Counted from the stretch's first letter, positions 49,161-61,555 are shown. The stretch: 64,000 nt of DNA from Spirochaetota bacterium (GCA_963664815.2 CAXXHB010000003.1:32001-96000); one strand, 5' to 3'. Numbers and translations are program-made. The notes: generated by a model not told the origin, from the sequence alone.

Positions 49161-50156
49161 ATGAAAAAGGCACGTTATATATTTCTTGCTGTGGGAATAA
49201 TTCTTCTTGTTTTACTATTTGCAGTTTTCGGAATTAAAAAACCGGTTATGCAGATTATTGATTTCGGCTGGAGATTCTGGATATGCGTGCTGATATACAT
49301 GTTCAATCAGCTTCTGCTCACCTATGGCTGGATGGTTCTTATTACTTATCCATTGAAGGCCCGTCAATATTTTGATGTTCTTCTGGCAAGAATTGCGGGA
49401 GATTCAACTACAACTATAAACACAGCAGCCGGAATAGCCGGCGATGCGTTAAAGGCAATGTATTTAAAGGACGTTGTTCCCTTTAAAATAGGGTTCGCAT
49501 CTGTTGTAATGGACAGAACAATCCACATGGCGGGAAACACGTTGCTGATTCTCACGGGATTGTTTGTAGGTTTTTTTAAACTCAATATGCCCTTCTATGT
49601 CCTTGCGGGAATTTTTTTATTTTTCTCGGTTTTTATGGGGCTTTTGATATATATAATGAAGAAACAGAAGGATGGATTTATAAAATACGGTATATCAATG
49701 CTTCCGGTAAAATTCAGAGAAAAGATTTATGCATCTGAAAGCAGAAAAGAGAAGATAAATAATATTGATCAGGAGATCAGCTTTATTTTCAACAGCAGGG
49801 AAAATCTCAATCATTTCTGGATATCTCTCTGTATGCATACACTCCCTGTTATGGCGGCCGGCACGTTTGAGATTTTCATTATAATGTATTATGCGGGGGG
49901 GAGCGCAACAATACTCGATGCAATGTTCGTTTACCTGTTTGGACTTTTTATTGCGGCTGCGGCATTCTTTGTGCCGCTTAATATAGGTACAAGCGAGGGT
50001 TCTTACTCAATGGTACTGGCGTTTCTGGGTTATGATCCGGTTCTCGGATTAACTGTAGGTATTATCCGCCGCCTGAGAGCGCTGGTGTGGTCTGGTATCG
50101 GGTTGTTGCTTCTTTTCCATAAAGGACTTACGGGGAAGGACGCGGGAATTGAATAG
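49161..50156 (+). CDS. LPG_synthase_TM / YbhN-family flippase-like membrane protein
   Basis: GIAGDALKA, SVVMDR, FFVPLNIGTSEG and IIRRLR; multi-TM. Confidence 0.82.
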   Translation: MKKARYIFLAVGIILLVLLFAVFGIKKPVMQIIDFGWRFWICVLIYMFNQLLLTYGWMVLITYPLKARQYFDVLLARIAGDSTTTINTAAGIAGDALKAMYLKDVVPFKIGFASVVMDRTIHMAGNTLLILTGLFVGFFKLNMPFYVLAGIFLFFSVFMGLLIYIMKKQKDGFIKYGISMLPVKFREKIYASESRKEKINNIDQEISFIFNSRENLNHFWISLCMHTLPVMAAGTFEIFIIMYYAGGSATILDAMFVYLFGLFIAAAAFFVPLNIGTSEGSYSMVLAFLGYDPVLGLTVGIIRRLRALVWSGIGLLLLFHKGLTGKDAGIE

Positions 50157-50180
50157 AATAATAAAAAACGGATGGAATAA

Positions 50181-51848
50181 ATGAAGAGAGTACAACCGCT
50201 ATCTGACAGAATTGAACAGATGAAAGAGCCGCTGTTTTTGTTTTTTCTTTTTATAACAACACTGATATTCAGACTGCCGACTTTATTTAATGATTTCTAT
50301 GATGTGGACGAACTTGCTGCGATTGTCCAGACAAAAGAATTCCTCGCGGGATTCAAACCTGGAATTGATTTTTCAGAAAGCAAACTTCCCCTTTTTCATA
50401 CAATATATAAATTCTCCTATGGCATCAATGCTGCGTATGGATGGGTAATAGTTCATGCTGTAACAATTATTATTGTTTTCCTTACGGCACTTTCAGTCTA
50501 TTATATCGGCAGAGTGGTACGTGACCGGAGGACCGGTATTATAGCATCAATAATGTATGCTGTTCTTATCTCCTCTTTCAACAGGCATTTTATGGCGACA
50601 AACGGGGAGGTGATATATAATCTCCCGATCACGGCCGGGTTGCTCTTTTTTATTTTAATGATTAAAAACCGGTCCTGGTATTTAAGAATGCTTTATTCTG
50701 CTTTTATATTCATTGCTGTATACGCAGCAATGAATATTAAGGTTCATGGGGTAATACTGCTTTTATTTATTGCTTTCTTCATTATTCTGTATATCCCATA
50801 TTACCGTAATATTTTATCGCGAAGGATTTTACCATACATGGTAACAGCGGCGGTTGTTTTACTTGTTTTTACCATTGATTATTTTATAACAAAGAAATTT
50901 GCCTCCGGGATGATAAGCAGACTGCTGAATCTTTTGTTTTATGCCACATCAGATCGCAGCAGTAATCCACTTTTCCTGATCGGAGTATACACATACAGGC
51001 AGTTGACGCTTGGATTATGGCATATGGTTCTATGGGTACCGGCAGCGGTGTACATGTACAGGTTTGTCCGCAGCAGATTCAGGAGAGATACAATAGAGGA
51101 ATCGGCTGTGGCTATTTTTGCGCTGATTACCTTTCTTATGGTTTTCGCCGGGGGCGCCCGGCTTTATTACCACTATTTTATGACGACGTATCCTTCACTA
51201 TGTGTTATCGCTGCCATTGCGCTGGTTGCTGCTGATTCTTCTGCGGTTAAGAAAATCTATTCAAACATTACAATCGCTTTTTTAATTCCGGGATTGTTTT
51301 TTCTTTCATGGAATATTAAGGATATATATATTAAGTATTATAACCGGGAACTTTTTTATAATGAACCAGCGCCGCTTTTCTGGTTTCGTGCTGTTGTTGT
51401 AAGCTCGATGGATGACTATTTGCTGCCGAACGGCATTTATGTAAATACCGTTGAGTATATAAAAAACAGCACAAAACCTGATGAAACAATATTTGTCTGG
51501 GGTGATGGTCCGCATCTTTATTATTTCTCAGACCGGAGAATAGCAATACATCATGTATGGCCGAAAGGTATAGCATTAAGGATAGAACGGCTTTACAGGG
51601 AAAACAGTACCGGATCTTTATCTGAAGCTGAGATACTGGAGAATGGGTTTATCGTAAATATGGAAAGTAAAAAGCCGGCTCTGTTTATTGATACCTCGCC
51701 TAAAGGGCTTCACCGTGGCATAACAAGGTTCGGCAGTTTCGCCATGTATCCCTGCAAAGTTCCACCTCTTATGAAAAAGTATCTTGATGATCATTACCGG
51801 CTTGAAAAGGTAGTTGATGATTACAGAATATACCGGCGCGTCAGATAA
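50181..51848 (+). CDS. GT-C fold (ArnT/PMT-like) membrane glycosyltransferase
   Basis: DVDE after TM1, KLPL, ATNGE, YYHYF and PDETIFVWG. Confidence 0.82.
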   Translation: MKRVQPLSDRIEQMKEPLFLFFLFITTLIFRLPTLFNDFYDVDELAAIVQTKEFLAGFKPGIDFSESKLPLFHTIYKFSYGINAAYGWVIVHAVTIIIVFLTALSVYYIGRVVRDRRTGIIASIMYAVLISSFNRHFMATNGEVIYNLPITAGLLFFILMIKNRSWYLRMLYSAFIFIAVYAAMNIKVHGVILLLFIAFFIILYIPYYRNILSRRILPYMVTAAVVLLVFTIDYFITKKFASGMISRLLNLLFYATSDRSSNPLFLIGVYTYRQLTLGLWHMVLWVPAAVYMYRFVRSRFRRDTIEESAVAIFALITFLMVFAGGARLYYHYFMTTYPSLCVIAAIALVAADSSAVKKIYSNITIAFLIPGLFFLSWNIKDIYIKYYNRELFYNEPAPLFWFRAVVVSSMDDYLLPNGIYVNTVEYIKNSTKPDETIFVWGDGPHLYYFSDRRIAIHHVWPKGIALRIERLYRENSTGSLSEAEILENGFIVNMESKKPALFIDTSPKGLHRGITRFGSFAMYPCKVPPLMKKYLDDHYRLEKVVDDYRIYRRVR

Positions 51849-51874: not shown

Positions 51875-54825
<2,951 letters not shown>

Positions 54826-54839
54826 TTTATTCTCCTCTG

Positions 54840-56138
54840 CTACTTTGTTCCCGGGATAAGTTCAAGAATTTCTTTTATAGGCATACAGACAGAATCCGCT
54901 TCCTTTGACCTCTCATTTTCCAGAATCATTTTTGCAGTGCTGAACATTGCCGGATAGGATGACCTCAGCATATGGTTGGCATATATAATAATATTGGCAC
55001 CCCATGAATGAAGTTCGGTTTCAGTGAACTGGTTATATGTGGTGGGTACAAGAACAATCGGAATTGAAGTGTAATCTTTTCTGAACCTTAAACAGAATTC
55101 TTTTATATCATTGCCGGACTTTTCCTTGCTGTGGATCATGATGCCGTCGGCTCCGGCATGTACATAGGCCGCCGCTCTTTCAAGAGCGTCATCAACAGTT
55201 TTTCCGGCTATCAGGCTTTCAAGCCTGGCAATAATCATAAAATCAGCAGTTACCTGAGCTTTTTTCCCCGCACTTATTTTCTCGCAGAATTCAGGGATTG
55301 AGGCGAGGTTCTGTTCAACATCCGTTCCGAAAAGTGAATTTTTTTTAAGCCCCACTTTGTCTTCGATTATAACTGCGGAGACTCCGTTGCGTTCAAGAGT
55401 ACGGACTGTAAAAACGAAGTGTTCGGGAATGCCCCCTGTATCACCGTCAAAAATAATAGGTTTTGTTGTACACTCAAGGATATTTGTCAGATCCTGTAAT
55501 CTTGTAGTAAGATCAACAGCCTCTATGTCAGGTTTCCCCTTGCTGGTTGAATCAGTTAAACTGGAAGACCACATGCCGTCATAATGATGTATCCCGTCCT
55601 CTTTTTCTATTTCAATATTTTCAACTATAAGTCCTGACAGGCCGGAGTGTGCTTCCATAATCCTTACAATCTTTTTTGCGTGAATAAGGCGGCGTAGTGC
55701 TTTGAGGCGTATATCAGGAGTGGTGCCTATCGATTTTTGTGCTTCATGAAGCATCGAAGAGGTAATCCCGTGAGTATAGGGAATTTCTATTACGTCACCG
55801 CCGATCTGTTTCATGACTTCAAGAACGTCATCGCGTACCCTGCTTAACGGGCCGCTTTTCCAGTCGTCTCCGTGAATGATTGCATCCGGCCTGTATTTCA
55901 GAAGATTAGGGACATAACTCCATTCCTCCTGAGGTACAATAGTATCCACCCCTTTAATGTTTTCAACAACCGTTTTACGCTGTTCATATGTGAGGAAGGG
56001 GAGGCGCTTGTGTGAAGCTATTGCTGAATCAGTTAACAGGCCCGCCATTACCTTTCCGTGTTTTGACGCTTCATTGATAATATTGATTATTCCGGGGTGG
56101 ATGATATCGCCGGTTAAACCAAGATATATGGTTTTCAT
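54840..56138 (-). CDS. aepX: Phosphoenolpyruvate mutase with an N-terminal cytidylyltransferase-like domain
   Basis: Diagnostic EDKVGLKKNS (EDKX5NS), DGDTG and IYANH. N-terminal domain has HGDDW. Confidence 0.97.
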   Translation of the reverse strand: MKTIYLGLTGDIIHPGIINIINEASKHGKVMAGLLTDSAIASHKRLPFLTYEQRKTVVENIKGVDTIVPQEEWSYVPNLLKYRPDAIIHGDDWKSGPLSRVRDDVLEVMKQIGGDVIEIPYTHGITSSMLHEAQKSIGTTPDIRLKALRRLIHAKKIVRIMEAHSGLSGLIVENIEIEKEDGIHHYDGMWSSSLTDSTSKGKPDIEAVDLTTRLQDLTNILECTTKPIIFDGDTGGIPEHFVFTVRTLERNGVSAVIIEDKVGLKKNSLFGTDVEQNLASIPEFCEKISAGKKAQVTADFMIIARLESLIAGKTVDDALERAAAYVHAGADGIMIHSKEKSGNDIKEFCLRFRKDYTSIPIVLVPTTYNQFTETELHSWGANIIIYANHMLRSSYPAMFSTAKMILENERSKEADSVCMPIKEILELIPGTK

Positions 56139-56503
56139 AGTTTCTCCTTTTTTATAATGCAGTAAGGTTGCTTTAATCCCATAAAATATGCCATATCCCT
56201 GTGAAGAATAAAAAATGCCGTGGCTGCCTGTTCCTGTTTAATGATTCAGAGTTCAATATAACAGATCGGTTCACGGTGTTTTCACTGAGACTGATATAAT
56301 CTATTTGATTAAATTGCAACAATAATGAATTATAACAATCACCATCAGGTAACAGGGGCAATTTATTATATCAGTCAATTAATTAAAAGTTTTTTTTAAA
56401 AAGTCTCTTTTTTTTAAGAAACGTTTCAGGTAAATTTAACCGCAGGGTTTTCTGTTAATAATGCAGAGTGCTAATATTATTGACAAAATTTAAACAGGGT
56501 TTT

Positions 56504-56551
56504 CTCTATCATAAAGAAGAGATTTTTTAAAATCACTTCTTTATGATAGAG
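56504..56551. promoter_or_regulatory. 48-bp near-perfect palindrome in the divergent promoter region
   Basis: CTCTATCATAAAGAAGAGATTTT-TT-AAAATCACTTCTTTATGATAGAG: 23-bp arms with one mismatch; TTGACA at 56480. Confidence 0.65.
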
Positions 56552-56608
56552 CCCCGGAGTTTAATGCAGAGAGCAGAGCACTGTAAGTATTATGCATGAG
56601 GTGTAAAT

Positions 56609-57295
56609 TTGAATATTTTATATATGATTTTTTTCTATCCTATTGAACTCCTGATGGAGTTCCTGATGAGTAATATTTTTTTGTTTGTCGGTTCATACGG
56701 TGTATCTTTGATTTTGACGAGCCTGTCTATAAATATAGTAATGATTCCGGTTTTCTGGTATGCGGAAAAACTTCAGCAGCGGGAACGCGACATTCAGGCG
56801 GCAATGAGACCGAAAATTCAGGAATACAAGAGCGTTTTTAAAGGGTATGAACTGCATCTGTATATAACCAACCTCCATAAGCAGCACAACTACCATCCGG
56901 TATATGCACTGAGGTCATTACTCGGCTTATTTATCCAGGTACCTTTTTTTGTTGCGACTTATAATTTTTTATCTCATTACAAGGCTGTAGAGGGAGTTTC
57001 TTTCCTGTTTTTCTTGGATCTTGGAAAACCGGATATGCTTCTTTCCATGTTCAGTTATAGTATAAATATATTGCCATTTATAATGACAGCCGTTAATCTT
57101 GTATCAAGTTTTGTCTATGGTAAAATGCTTACAAAAGCGGAAAGAATCAATATATATGTTATAGCTCTGTTTTTTCTTGTGCTGTTGTATAAATCTCCGT
57201 CCGGTCTGCTGCTCTACTGGACCTGTAATAATATTTTCAGTCTGTTTAAAAGTATAGTGTTTGTAAAGCAGCTTCAAAAAAAATCTGACGCATAA
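56609..57295 (+). CDS. Short YidC/Oxa1-family paralogue
   Basis: YGVSLI, coiled hairpin (MRPKIQE), HPV..L..LFIQVPFF, FLDLGKPD, ILPFIM and PSGLLLYWTCNNIFS; TTG start after GAGGTG. Confidence 0.88.
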   Translation: MNILYMIFFYPIELLMEFLMSNIFLFVGSYGVSLILTSLSINIVMIPVFWYAEKLQQRERDIQAAMRPKIQEYKSVFKGYELHLYITNLHKQHNYHPVYALRSLLGLFIQVPFFVATYNFLSHYKAVEGVSFLFFLDLGKPDMLLSMFSYSINILPFIMTAVNLVSSFVYGKMLTKAERINIYVIALFFLVLLYKSPSGLLLYWTCNNIFSLFKSIVFVKQLQKKSDA

Positions 57296-57311
57296 TGTAA
57301 CGGGGTTAAAT

Positions 57312-58604
57312 ATGTTAACAATTACAGCCGTTTTCTTTTTATATTTTCTGCTTGTCGGCGCTAATGCCTATGCCTACCTGGATCCCGGTTCAGGGAGTAT
57401 GCTTATTTCCGCTCTTGTTGCCATGGTGACAATTTTAATCTACATGGTAAAGAGTTTTATATATGACAAGGTGAAGGTTCTCGGGAAAAAAAGCGATCTG
57501 CCTGATCTGAAAAGAGAATACAATGTTGTGGTATACTCGGAAGGGGGGCAGTACTGGAATGTTTTTCTTCCTTTACTTCAGGAACTTGAATCAAGAGGTG
57601 AGTCTGCCGTATATTTTACCAGCAGGCAGGATGATCCCGGTCTGCAGCAGGAATTTGAACATATAGAAAAAAAATACATAGGTGAAGGAAATAATGCATT
57701 CTTTGTTCTGAACAAACTCAGGGCGAATTTTGTCATCATGACAACTCCCGGTCTTGGAGTACTCCAGATTAAAAGGAGCAGGGGGGTAAAACACTATTGC
57801 CATATAACACATTCCGCCGGCACCTGCTCAAGCTACAAGGCCTTTTCTCTCGATTATTTTGACAGCGTACTTGTCGGCGGTACTGCCGATAAAAATATTA
57901 TAGCCGAACTGGAAGAAAAAAGAAGAACCCCCAAAAAACAGGTTGAGATAATCGGCTGCAGCTATCTTGACGTGTTACGTACAAAACTTAAAAACGGCAG
58001 TTACAGTTACAATCTTTTCGCTGAAAAGAAACCTACAATTCTGATCTCTCCCACATGGGGAGAACATGGCCTGCTGAGCAAATACGGCAGAGATCTCTTG
58101 AAGACACTTTCAGAATGCAGAGATTTTAATATAATAGTAAGACCTCATCCGCAATCCTTTGTATCGGAAAAAAAACTGATGGATGAGTTATTAAGCAGTT
58201 ATCCGGACAGTGACAGCTTAAAGTGGGATTCTGAAAAGGATGGATTAAAGGCGATGTTCCATGCTGACCTGATGGTAAGTGATTTTTCAGGGATAATATA
58301 CGATTATCTTTTCCTCTTTGAACGCCCGGTGCTTACTTTCAAGGCGCAGTTTGAAAAACGTGGAAGAGAGGCCATGGACTTGAAGGATGACTCACCCGAT
58401 ATTAAGTTTCTTGATAAAATAGGCAGAACGCTTCAGGAAACGGATATATCTGATTTAATAACGATTATAAAAAAGAGTCTGTCTGACAGGAGTGCGCTGC
58501 CTGATGTAATTAAAGAGGCTAAGGAAGCGCTTACACAGTTTCCCGGCGAATCGGGTAAGCGTGCTGTTGATTTCATTCAGTCTGTATTGAACAGTAAAAA
58601 ATAA
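57312..58604 (+). CDS. TagF/TagB-like CDP-glycerol glycerophosphotransferase-family protein with signal + YLDPG membrane anchor
   Basis: ANAYA-YLDPGSGSMLISALVA, ISPTWG, RPHP and ADLMVSDFSGIIYDY. Confidence 0.85.
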   Translation: MLTITAVFFLYFLLVGANAYAYLDPGSGSMLISALVAMVTILIYMVKSFIYDKVKVLGKKSDLPDLKREYNVVVYSEGGQYWNVFLPLLQELESRGESAVYFTSRQDDPGLQQEFEHIEKKYIGEGNNAFFVLNKLRANFVIMTTPGLGVLQIKRSRGVKHYCHITHSAGTCSSYKAFSLDYFDSVLVGGTADKNIIAELEEKRRTPKKQVEIIGCSYLDVLRTKLKNGSYSYNLFAEKKPTILISPTWGEHGLLSKYGRDLLKTLSECRDFNIIVRPHPQSFVSEKKLMDELLSSYPDSDSLKWDSEKDGLKAMFHADLMVSDFSGIIYDYLFLFERPVLTFKAQFEKRGREAMDLKDDSPDIKFLDKIGRTLQETDISDLITIIKKSLSDRSALPDVIKEAKEALTQFPGESGKRAVDFIQSVLNSKK

Positions 58605-58617
58605 TAAGGCAGCAGTT

Positions 58618-60411
58618 ATGATAAACAGAAATCCGCTTTTCATTAAAATTGATATGAGTATAAAAAGATTTATGCAGAGAGATTTAACAGTTTTTTTCAC
58701 GAACTCATTATTCTTTACAGGCCTGCTGTTAATCTATTCACTTGGATGTTCTTATCTTCTTCCACAGGGGGTAAATGCACATTTTGCCTCAATTTTATTG
58801 ATAGTTCTTTCCGGGATTTTTCTGCTTTTTGTGCTGATTTTTTCAGGCTGGCGTTTTCTTACACGGAAAATGTCTTATGCATATAATAAAAAATACGAGC
58901 CGTTTAAGACAGCAGACTTTATTTTCATATTGATCCCGATGACACCGGTTATGCAGTATATTCTGTCAAACCAGGATTCTCTGACTATGTTCAGCTCGTC
59001 TTTAATCTTTATAATCTTTGGAGTAACTATTGCCATATTCGGTATTGTTATTCCGGTACTGCTGTCACGTTTTGCTTTTAAAAAGGTGTTAATAACAGCA
59101 TCTGTCAGTTTTCTTTACATGATAATGAGTATGGCGTCTCTTGCGGCAGCCAATGGGTGGAGCGGGAAGGGAATAATCAGTATTCAAATTGTGATCCTCC
59201 TGATCGTTATTCTTGTTTTATCGTTACTGAGATTTATTCCTGAAAAAATTATTATAATTGCCATTGTTGTCTTTTTTACTGTAAACACAGTTACCGGAGT
59301 TTTATTTAAAAAATCAGAAGGTGGAGAGTCTGAAACGGTTAAGAATTTTTCTGTAATGTCTGCTCTTGAAGGGAAGAGGGTTAAAAAGCATAATGATGTT
59401 CTGCTGATAGTATATGAATCTTATCCCAATTATGAAACCTTAAAGCATTACGGTTTTGAAAACAGTGAACAGCTTGCATTTCTGGAATCAAATGGTTTCC
59501 GTATTTATAATGGAGTATATTCTCTCGGGATACCCACAGAACAGTCCATGTCGAGAGTTTTTAATGTCGAGCTGGATCTGAAAGAACATAAAAAGTACCT
59601 GGCAGGGGGTGGGGCTGTTCACAGTATTCTCAGAGGACAGGGATATAAAACATATGGTGTTTTTGACAACAGCTGGAATTTAAGAGGGCTCCCCATTGAC
59701 CAGATTAAATATGATAACTGTTTTCCAAGACCTTCCGGCGTTATGGATAGTAAGGTGCTTGTGAATGCAATATTTACAGGAGAGTTCAGCGATGCCGTGA
59801 GTTTTGAAGGGGTGGATTACAACTCATATATAGATCACAAGCATAAAGTAATTAAAAAGGAATATCCCTGCCCGGTTTTTATGTACTCACACAGCAGTTT
59901 TCCCGGTCATGGTCCCAGCGGTATGGGGATGAGACTTGAAGAGAGGGAGGGGAAGATAGCCGGACATCTTGAAGGCATCCAAAAAGCGAACGTTGAGATG
60001 AAACAGGATGTGGATGTAATAATAAAAAGTAATCCCGACGCTATTGTTGTTATAGCAGGGGATCATGGACCGTTTCTGACAAAAACAGGTTATGGTTTAA
60101 GCAAGGGACGGGGAGGTTTCAGCGCAGAGGATATCGACAGATATGATATCCAGGACAGGTTCGGGTCATTCCTTGCAATAAGATGGCCTGAAAAAAAATA
60201 TGCGGAAAAGTATGATATTAAGGTCTTTCAGGATATATTTCCGGCAATTTTTTCATACCTCTATGATGATGATTCGATATTTAATAAAATCAGGATTGAG
60301 AGAGTAACGAGAGAAATCAAGCGGATACTGGGTGTTTATGTAAAAGACGGGGTCATATATGGAGGTAAAGACAACGGGCAGAAACTCTTTTTAATGGAAC
60401 AGAAAAAATAA
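58618..60411 (+). CDS. Membrane-anchored alkaline-phosphatase-superfamily (LtaS/EptA/sulfatase-like) protein
   Basis: About 7 N-terminal TM segments, then LLIVYESY, PTEQSM (candidate Thr nucleophile), HSSFPGH and IAGDHG. Confidence 0.8.
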   Translation: MINRNPLFIKIDMSIKRFMQRDLTVFFTNSLFFTGLLLIYSLGCSYLLPQGVNAHFASILLIVLSGIFLLFVLIFSGWRFLTRKMSYAYNKKYEPFKTADFIFILIPMTPVMQYILSNQDSLTMFSSSLIFIIFGVTIAIFGIVIPVLLSRFAFKKVLITASVSFLYMIMSMASLAAANGWSGKGIISIQIVILLIVILVLSLLRFIPEKIIIIAIVVFFTVNTVTGVLFKKSEGGESETVKNFSVMSALEGKRVKKHNDVLLIVYESYPNYETLKHYGFENSEQLAFLESNGFRIYNGVYSLGIPTEQSMSRVFNVELDLKEHKKYLAGGGAVHSILRGQGYKTYGVFDNSWNLRGLPIDQIKYDNCFPRPSGVMDSKVLVNAIFTGEFSDAVSFEGVDYNSYIDHKHKVIKKEYPCPVFMYSHSSFPGHGPSGMGMRLEEREGKIAGHLEGIQKANVEMKQDVDVIIKSNPDAIVVIAGDHGPFLTKTGYGLSKGRGGFSAEDIDRYDIQDRFGSFLAIRWPEKKYAEKYDIKVFQDIFPAIFSYLYDDDSIFNKIRIERVTREIKRILGVYVKDGVIYGGKDNGQKLFLMEQKK

Positions 60412-60718
60412 AAGTTCAGACGAATGCCTGGTCATTACATCCGGTTTACAGAAAACTTTCCCGCAGAAAAGAGGAACAGTAAACTTCACGATCTTTCAGG
60501 TAATATTTTTTCAGGTTGTATTATGCAGTGTTATATCACACCGGTTTTAATACCTCAAAAATAAAAATATTCTCCATTATTATTAATTCACTTAAAGATA
60601 TACTTGATTTTTCGGTAATATAGGGCGATAATCATACTGAATATCCGGATTTATCGTTTAATGACTCTGATTTATTCCCGGTATCATAAACATAATCCGG
60701 CTAAATGGAAGGGGGAAT

Positions 60719-61555
60719 ATGAAACGCATTATTACATTTGCGGTTATGATCGCTGCAGCTTTTACTCTCGCTTTTACTCTCTATGGGGAAACCCAGCCTG
60801 AACTTATGGTCTTTACAAGGCCCGCCTGCGGGAGGTGTACTTATACTGTCGATTTCCTTAAAAAAAATAATATTAAATATACTGAATATTCAACATCGGA
60901 AACTGAAAACAGAACAAAGATGTGGGAAATCGTCCGCGCATCGGGGAAATATAAAAACGGTTCAATAAGCATGCCTGTTGTTGTTATAAAAGGGGAGGTA
61001 TTTATTAATATCCCTGACATGCAGGAGTTTACAGGATCAATCGCTTCGTTGATTGCCGGCAGGAGTACCCCGGTTATCGAAGGAGAAAATAAAACGGATT
61101 CTTCCGATCCATTTATTAATAGCATAAGAGAAAGGCATAACTATTACAGGAAAAACCATAATACTCCCGGTTTAAAATGGAATCCTGTCATTCAGCAGTA
61201 TGCGCAGGCATGGGCGGATAAACTTGCAGCTGAAGACAGAATGTATCACCGTCAACCGAATAAATATGGTGAAAATATATACTGGATCTCCGGCGGGGAG
61301 GTGGATGGCAGCTCTGTTGTTGACAGCTGGTATTCCGAAATAAAGTATTATAACTATAAAAACCCGGGTTTCGGAATGTCCACCGGACATTTTACCCAGG
61401 TAGTATGGAGCGGGTCAACCGAACTGGGATGCGGCAAATCCAGGTCAAAAAGGGGCGGAACATATGTGGTATGCAACTATAATCCTCCGGGGAATTATAT
61501 GGGGATGTTTGATAAAAATGTATTACCAGTAAGCGATAAGAGAAGTGGTAATTGA
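60719..61555 (+). CDS. Secreted glutaredoxin-like (CxxC) + CAP/SCP (PR-1/GAPR-1-like) fusion protein
   Basis: Signal peptide, CGRC, SMPVV cis-Pro, then HNYYR..H, GENI, WYSE, GHFTQVVW and VVCNYNPPGN. Confidence 0.88.
   Translation: MKRIITFAVMIAAAFTLAFTLYGETQPELMVFTRPACGRCTYTVDFLKKNNIKYTEYSTSETENRTKMWEIVRASGKYKNGSISMPVVVIKGEVFINIPDMQEFTGSIASLIAGRSTPVIEGENKTDSSDPFINSIRERHNYYRKNHNTPGLKWNPVIQQYAQAWADKLAAEDRMYHRQPNKYGENIYWISGGEVDGSSVVDSWYSEIKYYNYKNPGFGMSTGHFTQVVWSGSTELGCGKSRSKRGGTYVVCNYNPPGNYMGMFDKNVLPVSDKRSGN

Follow-up and report, generated by a model that had tools for sequence, protein, structure and literature searches.

Organisation of the locus

The window analysed in this study is a stretch of 64,000 nucleotides from a Spirochaetota bacterium (GCA_963664815.2, CAXXHB010000003.1:32001-96000), and its subject is a run of three plus-strand genes at positions 56609 to 60411. 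These genes encode a YidC-like membrane protein, a membrane-anchored TagF-like enzyme and a polytopic protein of the alkaline phosphatase (AP) superfamily, and are referred to below as genes 1, 2 and 3. They are separated by spacers of 16 and 13 nt and are divergent from an operon for 2-aminoethylphosphonate (AEP) with the order cytidylyltransferase-pepM, ppd and pntC-AEPT (double colons denote gene fusions hereafter). An earlier sequence-only reading of the window had described three tightly spaced genes divergent from an AEP operon, and both the open reading frames (ORFs) and the spacers were confirmed. The three genes are:

56609-57295, plus strand: YidC/Oxa1-like paralogue (228 amino acids, TTG start; PF02096, TIGR03592)
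57312-58604, plus strand: membrane-anchored TagB/TagF-fold enzyme (430 amino acids; PF04464, AlphaFold2 (AF2) model)
58618-60411, plus strand: polytopic AP-superfamily transferase (597 amino acids; AF2 model, fold matches)

The TTG codon of the YidC-like gene lies 5 nt past the sequence GAGGTG. An alternative ATG at 56624 would give a 223-amino-acid form, and it is this shorter form that database entry P0079 contains.

The three genes form one functional unit

The strongest result of the analysis was that the trio forms a single functional unit, as had been proposed from the sequence; it was carried by gene fusions in both pairings and by near-perfect co-occurrence. In a set of 39 genome loci with a gene 3 homologue, the TagF-like and AP proteins were fused into single proteins of 945-1042 amino acids at four loci (L004, L007, L009 and L016), and at one locus (L035) a YidC-like::AP fusion stood beside a TagF-like gene. 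Three further YidC::AP fusions were present among 78 protein homologues of gene 3.

A metagenome set was formed by the best 80 of 307 TagF-like relatives, and a TagF-like ORF was called at 77 of these 80 loci. A YidC-like domain was encoded at 50 of the 77 loci and by the immediate next gene at 44/77; where at least 3 kb of sequence was available on both sides, it was present at 19 of 21 loci. The YidC-like proteins of the metagenomes included 50 fusions of at least 800 amino acids, nearly all of them 820-1010 amino acids long. All seven fusion proteins that were tested scored above the cut-off for PF02096, and six of the seven gave a weak match to PF00884 or PF01663 below the cut-off. The C-terminal parts of the 50 fusion proteins matched the gene 3 family (hhalign probability 81%, E = 1.3e-5), and the equivalent Asp, Thr, His and Asp-His residues were conserved in 50/50. 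Most systems of this kind are fused, and the window, with all three genes separate, shows the less common split form.

Co-occurrence was determined in 251 evenly drawn Spirochaetota genomes, 48 of which were matched by the TagF-like profile. Matches to the YidC-subfamily profile fell into two classes, one of at least 160 bits in frames of approximately 224-246 or 850-1010 amino acids and the other of 140-150 bits in frames of 509-613 amino acids, the latter being the housekeeping YidC. When a cut of 160 bits was applied, which was chosen after the score split had been seen, the YidC subfamily was present in 44 of the 251 genomes, and a TagF-like gene was present in all 44. Four TagF-like-positive genomes lacked the subfamily; three of these had weak TagF-like matches (E = 1e-21 to 1e-54) and one was 86% complete. 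Up to six YidC::AP paralogues were found per genome, many of them dispersed, compared to one or two TagF-like genes.

None of the 16 other genomes of the window's own family carried the module, which is therefore patchy in that family and was probably acquired. A complex prediction for residues 1-250 of the AP protein with the YidC-like and TagF-like proteins scored 0.27 against a mark of 0.32, and was counted neither for nor against an association.

Gene 2 encodes an anchored TagF-like protein

The product of gene 2 matched PF04464 with 40 bits (cut-off 22.1) over residues 182-349 only; no PF04464 sequence match was obtained for the N-terminal half. A profile of 36 TagF-like relatives matched the PDB entries of TagF (3L7I), TarL (8VA1) and the TagF-like polymerase Cps3D (8QOY). 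The AF2 model (predicted local distance difference test score, pLDDT, 86.6) gave TagF 3L7I as the top Foldseek match (E = 5.3e-14, TMq 0.55), and the ten best matches were all TagF chains. In the C-terminal nucleotide-binding half, 'RPHP' was aligned on 'RMHY' of TagF and 'SDFSG' on 'TDYSS'. The invariant H279 of 'RPHP' was aligned to the His of 'RMHY', and the invariant H167 had no aligned counterpart in the sequence alignment. The active-site histidines of TagF are taken here to be H444 and H584. The family is large, with more than 2,100 relatives in one search.

The protein begins with a signal-peptide-like segment (residues 1-21) ending in A-x-A (ANAYA), which is followed by a short motif, one transmembrane (TM) helix, a Lys/Arg-rich stretch and the GT-B domain. 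The earlier description of an anchored TagF-like enzyme was borne out. The motif (Y22-L-D24-P25-G-S-G-S; residues 22-29, positions 57375-57398) has the family form Y-x-D-P-G-S/T-G-S, and Y22, D24 and P25 were invariant in 36 sequences. In relatives it lies either behind an AxA-type signal-like segment or 4-15 residues from the N-terminus; the tip is therefore predicted to face outward and the GT-B domain to be cytoplasmic, the side on which the activated form of AEP, cytidine monophosphate-AEP (CMP-AEP), is found. In a whole-genome scan for the anchor motif, no protein besides the product of the TagF-like gene carried it. A second PF04464 gene, which is located far from the window (G000:C3:3034211-3034678; 31 bits, 537-amino-acid frame), is without the anchor motif.

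The anchor was also seen in another setting. At 13 of the 39 genome loci (L006, L013-L015, L017, L019-L022, L031 and L036-L038; for example L019:8056-9703), which belong to Chloroflexota, Krumholzibacteriota, Bdellovibrionota and Chitinophagaceae, the gene 3 homologue adjoined the gene for a protein of approximately 460 amino acids, designated 'c1'. A split TagF-like enzyme was ruled out for this neighbour (hhalign probability 0.3%); that it is a NoeA-like class I S-adenosylmethionine methyltransferase is a lead only. At least seven of the 13 loci also encoded a protein of approximately 80-150 amino acids that shares with the TagF-like protein its TM anchor, its signal-like segment and the Y-x-D-P-G-S/T-G-S motif. 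Possibly the anchor serves as a general adaptor, tying a variety of cytoplasmic head-group enzymes to this AP family.

Gene 3 encodes a predicted outward-facing transferase

The LtaS/EptA-like label that the sequence-only reading had given to gene 3 stood by structure and by way of homologues, 19 of 78 of which carried PF00884 (P0015 with 33.6 bits, cut-off 25); it did not stand by the sequence of gene 3 itself, which had no match in Pfam (E 0.01), NCBIfam or the PDB sequences. The AF2 model (pLDDT 86.8) placed seven membrane-length helices in residues 24-229 (positions 58687-59304) and a soluble domain of predicted LtaS/EptA/PbgA fold in residues 245-593 (positions 59350-60396). This domain matched PbgA/YejM, EptC, LtaP and LtaS with Z scores of 19.5-20.9 and root mean square deviations (rmsd) of 3.7-4.0 over 271-293 residues, individual matches being PbgA/YejM 5I5H (Z 20.5, rmsd 3.9, 277 residues aligned), EptC 6A82 (Z 20.3), LtaP (Z 19.9) and LtaS 2W5R (Z 19.5). 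Foldseek E-values for the domain ranged from 1.4e-7 to 1e-5. The candidate catalytic residues, which were recognised by conservation, are encoded as follows:

59416-59418, plus strand: E267
59536-59538, plus strand: T307
59908-59910, plus strand: H431
60061-60066, plus strand: D482-H483

Glu or Asp at position 267, Thr or Ser at position 307, H431, D482 and H483 were each kept in 39/39 sequences, and no C/S-x-P-x-R motif, as found in formylglycine sulfatases, was present in the gene 3 protein. Because these acidic, Thr/Ser, His and Asp-His residues are conserved and the sulfatase motif is absent, the protein was labelled as LtaS/EptA-type, although true sulfatases score nearly as well. The order of the motifs suggests that the candidate residues are equivalent to those of LtaS (T300) and EptA (T280).

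The loops at residues 1-23 and 79-99 are rich in Lys and Arg and those at residues 45-54 and 118-123 are free of both, a distribution that places the N-terminus inside; since seven helices follow, the catalytic domain is predicted to lie outside. Whether it is the TagF-like or the YidC-like part that precedes AP in a fusion, the ends joined are ones that the predicted topology makes cytoplasmic. The predicted topology of the trio fits an inside-to-outside relay, and the AP and TagF-like proteins look catalytically competent, to judge from their conserved residues and from TagF as the top fold match. In two close relatives (L044:1987-5614 and L045:9871-13498) the gene 3 homologue was tandemly duplicated (606 and 593 amino acids) behind the TagF-like gene.

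Gene 1 encodes a YidC paralogue with an altered groove

The product of gene 1 matched PF02096 with 77.8 bits (cut-off 35) over model positions 1-161 of 163, and TIGR03592 with 85.4 bits (cut-off 84.3). It consists of the five-helix insertase core only, complete by sequence, and aligned to Bacillus halodurans YidC2 (3WO6; E = 2e-13) and to Escherichia coli YidC (3WVF). Since the genome also encodes a housekeeping YidC elsewhere (551 amino acids, 199.8 bits), gene 1 is a true YidC paralogue, in agreement with the earlier proposal.

At the groove position the protein has Asn42 (positions 56732-56734), which was aligned to an Arg in both 3WO6 and E. coli YidC ('..VR..'). Among 36 members of the YidC subfamily this column was occupied by Asn in 24, Ser in ten, Gln in one and Thr in one, and by Arg or Lys in none. 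The housekeeping YidC (G000:C2:754518-755078; L040:433-2088) has Lys and not Arg at the groove, within the motif '..LTKIVFMPL..'. The loss of the groove charge in 36/36 members, in a genome whose housekeeping copy has Lys, suggests that the YidC-like protein has acquired a new role. A preprint reports that E. coli YidC acts as a phospholipid scramblase in vitro (bioRxiv 10.1101/2023.09.01.555937).

The divergent AEP operon and neighbouring genes

The region on the other side of the trio contains the following features:

56139-56608, no strand: intergenic region from pepM to the YidC-like gene (470 nt)
54840-56138, minus strand: PF01467 cytidylyltransferase-like domain::phosphoenolpyruvate mutase (PepM) (432 amino acids; PF13714 185 bits, PF01467 40 bits)
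53719-54825, minus strand: phosphonopyruvate decarboxylase (Ppd) (368 amino acids; TIGR03297 403.1 bits, cut-off 312.5)
51875-53722, minus strand: PntC (AEP cytidylyltransferase)::AEP transaminase (AEPT) (615 amino acids; TIGR03301 369.4 bits, above cut-off)

The PepM fusion also matched TIGR02320 with 412.5 bits (cut-off 319.55) and has the Ppm motif EDKVGLKKNS (EDKxxxxxNS) at residue 259. Residues 1-613 of PntC::AEPT matched PDB entry 6PD1 (E = 2.4e-250). In the available part of its source (PMC6697681), 6PD1 is the enzyme Tde1415 and 6PD2 the same enzyme crystallised with CMP-AEP. This close homology upholds the claim that a PntC in the divergent operon probably makes CMP-AEP.

The sequence-only reading had also proposed a shared divergent promoter region. 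The divergence was confirmed, with 470 nt between the two units; the promoter was not, a consensus scan having returned 16 promoter-like sites where 15.7 were expected. An inverted repeat at 56504-56551 (23-nt arms, 96% complementary, 2-nt loop) precedes the start of the YidC-like gene by approximately 60 nt. It had no counterpart in the equivalent regions of loci L001 or L043, and an Rfam scan of 56139-56608 found no family at the gathering score, hairpin look-alikes appearing below threshold only.

No tiny membrane ORF was found past gene 3 in the stretch checked (60412-60718). The gene directly downstream of the trio (60719-61555) encodes a secreted-looking protein of 278 amino acids with glutaredoxin-like and CAP/SCP domains, and no such protein was seen adjoining the module in other loci. 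At 49161-51848, genes for an LPG_synthase_TM/HpnL-like membrane protein (331 amino acids) and a GT-C/PMT_2-like protein (555 amino acids; a weak match, below cut-off) run convergently towards the AEP operon at its end, and the GT-C gene is retained in L001 at 66% identity. Homologues of these two genes were absent from the 80 metagenome loci, and they are therefore not considered to be core parts of the module; in this genome their products may make the acceptor glycan.

Cargo of the module

AEP is most likely the cargo of the module in the source genome (5.2 Mb, 96.2% complete). This conclusion was reached because the adjoining operon makes CMP-AEP, as judged by close homology to a characterised enzyme, and because LicD, the enzyme type proposed to act downstream of PntC, was not found in that genome. 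It was also reached because PepM and the TagF-like gene co-occur beyond expectation: PepM (above cut-off) and TagF-like genes were present together in 19 of the 251 Spirochaetota genomes, compared to approximately 5.4 expected from their separate totals of 28 and 48, and were no more than 5 kb apart in ten of these 19. Finally, in a quick maximum-likelihood tree of 85 TagF-like sequences, the protein from the window belonged to a clade of six with 100% support that was linked to pepM at 5/5 informative loci, the sixth contig ending at the YidC-like gene. The pepM arrangement recurred in this clade at 55-87% identity.

The module is not phosphonate-specific. The proposal of a phosphonate decoration system thus held for the window, where the clade makes AEP the likely cargo, and did not hold for the module as such. 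A pepM, ppd or AEPT gene was found in the available flanks of 13 of the 77 metagenome loci, and also at two of the three loci where no TagF-like ORF was called. Other cargo genes at the 77 loci were LicC/choline-kinase-like (10 loci), TagD-like (three loci) or only other nucleotidyltransferase fusions (12 loci; NTP_transferase with HAD, and NTP_transf_3 with class I/II aminotransferase); no cargo gene was recognised at 41/77, many contigs being short. At a Clostridiales locus (L007:1581-9759), genes for an NTP-transferase::PepM fusion (689 amino acids), an Fe-alcohol dehydrogenase and Ppd lie directly upstream of a YidC-like gene and a TagF-like::AP fusion of 1042 amino acids, a gene set that suggests hydroxyethylphosphonate and not AEP. 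Erysipelothrix inopinata (L016) and an Erysipelothrix metagenome-assembled genome (L004) have, within a few genes, a YidC-like gene, a TagF-like::AP fusion of 1027/1028 amino acids and a LicC::choline-kinase fusion. Close relatives adjoin different cargo genes, which suggests either that the loader tolerates small head groups or that its specificity switches easily.

Two of these putative cargo-gene types recurred beside TagF-like genes (L051:8031-9389, L060:5483-7303 and L087:3522-5354). One encodes an NTP_transferase domain with an HAD phosphatase (452 amino acids) and the other an NTP_transf_3 domain with a class I/II aminotransferase (approximately 610 amino acids); both may activate an amino-alcohol phosphate head group.

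Discussion

The module described here is real, conserved and, in the papers searched, undescribed; its parts come from known superfamilies. For its mechanism we propose, with about an even chance of being right, that the trio is one envelope-decoration machine with the order loader, conduit and outer transferase, which has AEP as its cargo here and other head groups activated by cytidine diphosphate (CDP) or CMP elsewhere. The divergent operon would make AEP and, by homology to the characterised enzyme, activate it to CMP-AEP. The TagF-like loader, anchored at the inner face, would use CMP-AEP as donor and place the phosphono group on a lipid or glycolipid in the membrane. In what is the weakest step, the YidC-derived protein would then act in cis with the AP transferase and bring the charged head group to the outer leaflet. 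The fold and conserved residues of the outward AP domain suggest that it would take the group on Thr307 and hand it to a surface glycan or lipid. In other bacteria the same module would handle other CDP/CMP-activated head groups. A free membrane-bound intermediate is favoured because many dispersed YidC::AP paralogues accompany so few TagF-like genes, and an active in-cis role of the YidC-like part is favoured because the groove Arg is replaced in every subfamily member and E. coli YidC scrambles phospholipids. On sequence and models, this relay is plausible. A more detailed version is that a YidC-family protein has turned into a lipid-head-group conduit, that the TagF-type loader makes a special donor lipid in the cell interior, which YidC-fused AP transferases, frequently more than one per genome and with different acceptors, use outside, and that the Y-x-D-P-G-S/T-G-S tip docks the loader to the transferase; this we put forward tentatively, as somewhat unlikely in all its parts.

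Several observations weigh against the proposed relay and its cargo. Homologues in the wider family do mostly occur without pepM or pntC, a pattern that the sequence-only reading had said would speak against it: no pepM, ppd or AEPT gene was present in the available flanks of 64 of the 77 metagenome loci, and 29 of the 48 TagF-like-positive Spirochaetota genomes had no PepM, just as nine of the 28 PepM-positive genomes had no TagF-like gene. Cargo labels on the TagF-like tree required 10 changes compared to 11.8 ± 1.2 when shuffled (69 of 500 shuffles were as low), so that clustering was not significant among the 29 labelled rows to which the test was confined, 54 unlabelled and two mixed rows being excluded; the sequences thus give no sign of a donor specificity for CMP-AEP. 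The PF01467 domain fused to PepM was weakly like glycerol-3-phosphate cytidylyltransferase (51 bits, below cut-off), and this likeness makes CDP-glycerol a possible alternative donor. True sulfatases fitted the gene 3 domain at similar Z scores of 18-20. At 32 of the 39 genome loci, mostly from Chloroflexota and with approximately 33% identity, the gene 3 homologue had no TagF-like or YidC-like neighbour. The neighbourhood counts come from a simple ORF caller and many short contigs, and the genomes compared are kin, which makes the counts non-independent. To our knowledge, all characterised TagB/F enzymes use cytoplasmic lipid-linked glycan or polyol acceptors, and not diacylglycerol.

This last point would agree with an arrangement that has no relay, in which the TagF-like enzyme adds AEP straight to a cytoplasmic lipid-linked glycan precursor, ordinary flippases export the product, the YidC-like protein aids assembly, and the AP protein has another job outside, for example attaching or trimming a polymer or transferring the head group of a bulk phospholipid. 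Such an arrangement would also agree with the known LtaS/EptA enzymes, which need no dedicated donor synthase, and with the gene 3 loci that have no TagF-like neighbour. We consider it unlikely, however, since the TagF-like::AP fusions at four loci and the near-constant adjacency of TagF-like and YidC::AP genes argue for consecutive steps on one substrate, and a shared donor would better account for the presence of several scattered AP paralogues for each single TagF-like gene. A different objection concerns the YidC-like protein, which might handle no lipid and be a dedicated insertase or chaperone for the acidic N-terminal tail of the TagF-like anchor or for the seven-TM domain, in which case the rest of the relay may hold. 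The full PF02096 core is indeed retained, and the partner, which often lacks a signal peptide, has an N-out tail with an invariant Asp, a kind of substrate that YidC handles alone. The chance of this seems small to us: the groove Arg or Lys has been lost in all 36 members, the protein is fused to each AP paralogue, up to six per genome, rather than present as a single copy, a housekeeping YidC is already available, and at least seven loci that lack a YidC-like gene encode, next to a gene 3 homologue, a small protein bearing the anchor motif.

In a further alternative, the trio would be unrelated to AEP and would make or decorate a glycerol-phosphate (teichoic-acid-like) polymer from CDP-glycerol, its adjacency to the phosphonate operon being incidental. 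PF04464 is annotated as a CDP-glycerol family, TagD-like genes adjoin relatives at L009/L048, L084 and L105, and pepM is absent near most relatives. Against this stand the recurrence of the pepM arrangement throughout the informative loci of the clade, the short distance between PepM and TagF-like genes in ten genomes, the lack of a stand-alone TagD in the window and the absence from the genome of any LicD as an alternative user of CMP-AEP. We regard this explanation as highly improbable, and return to the relay with AEP as cargo.

Three-component relays are known in GtrB/GtrA/GtrC, ArnC/ArnEF/ArnT and CsbB/GtcA/YfhO, in which a lipid carrier is loaded from a nucleotide-activated donor by a transferase in the cytoplasm and flipped by a small membrane protein, after which an outward polytopic transferase decorates the surface polymer. 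The proposed relay would share this logic by analogy, but all of its parts come from other families, the group carried would be a phospho(no) head group rather than a sugar, and the supposed flippase is of the Oxa1 superfamily. Like LtaS, LtaP, EptA (MCR-1), EptC and PbgA (YejM), the gene 3 protein combines a polytopic membrane domain at its N-terminus with an extracytoplasmic domain of AP fold, and has the acidic residue, Thr/Ser, His and Asp-His, and presumably transfers its head group by a Thr-phospho(no) intermediate. It differs from them in having approximately seven modelled helices rather than five, in giving no Pfam match, and in being accompanied by a YidC-like protein and a cytoplasmic, CDP/CMP-dependent enzyme; the known enzymes use bulk phosphatidylglycerol or phosphatidylethanolamine. 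The gene 2 protein shares the GT-B fold and an alignable C-terminal nucleotide-binding half with TagB, TagF, TarL and Cps3D (PF04464), but has in addition the signal-like segment, the Y-x-D-P-G-S/T-G-S motif and the TM anchor, and genes for non-polymerisable head groups (AEP, choline) accompany its family. The gene 1 protein shares the five-helix core, by sequence, with the YidC/Oxa1 insertases (3WO6, 3WVF); its subfamily differs in having Asn, Ser, Gln or Thr in the groove, in being a second copy in the genome and in being fused to an enzyme in most relatives.

The gene set of the divergent operon is that of the Pnt pathway (PepM-Ppd-AEPT with PntC), including the PF01467::Ppm and PntC::AEPT fusions. 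In the available part of Rice et al. 2019 (PMC6697681), LicD-like phosphotransferases or glycosyltransferases are considered likely to act downstream of PntC and the later steps are called 'enigmatic'; the main text of that paper does not mention TagF, YidC, a sulfatase or a glycerophosphotransferase. In the available part of PMC8942020, the one related mention is of 'multiple sulfatases' in clusters of Selenomonas. A mutant of Erysipelothrix rhusiopathiae in a tagF homologue was attenuated, according to a review that also cites a paper on a capsule modified with phosphorylcholine (PMC7174600); no link from this homologue to the TagF-like::AP fusion gene was found. Literature searches, which did not extend to subscription papers or supplements, found no description of the combination (YidC with sulfatase and glycerophosphotransferase, or PF04464 with PF00884) and none that joined TagF to phosphoenolpyruvate mutase or a glycerophosphotransferase to 2-aminoethylphosphonate; broader searches, judged by titles and abstracts, likewise gave nothing.

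The majority of phosphonate gene clusters in bacteria are believed to serve the decoration of the cell surface, and the module is a candidate for the steps that follow CMP-AEP in Spirochaetota, Bacillota and other bacteria. Its significance extends to decoration with phosphocholine and glycerol-phosphate, which affect host recognition and resistance to antimicrobial peptides. If the relay is correct, LtaS/EptA-type enzymes would gain a new donor logic, in which a purpose-made donor takes the place of bulk phospholipid, and the YidC-like protein would be the first natural member of the YidC family specialised away from protein insertion, a finding that would bear on lipid scrambling by insertases. 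The module would then provide a missing route to the cell surface for phosphonates and, elsewhere, for choline-, glycerol- or amino-alcohol-phosphates.

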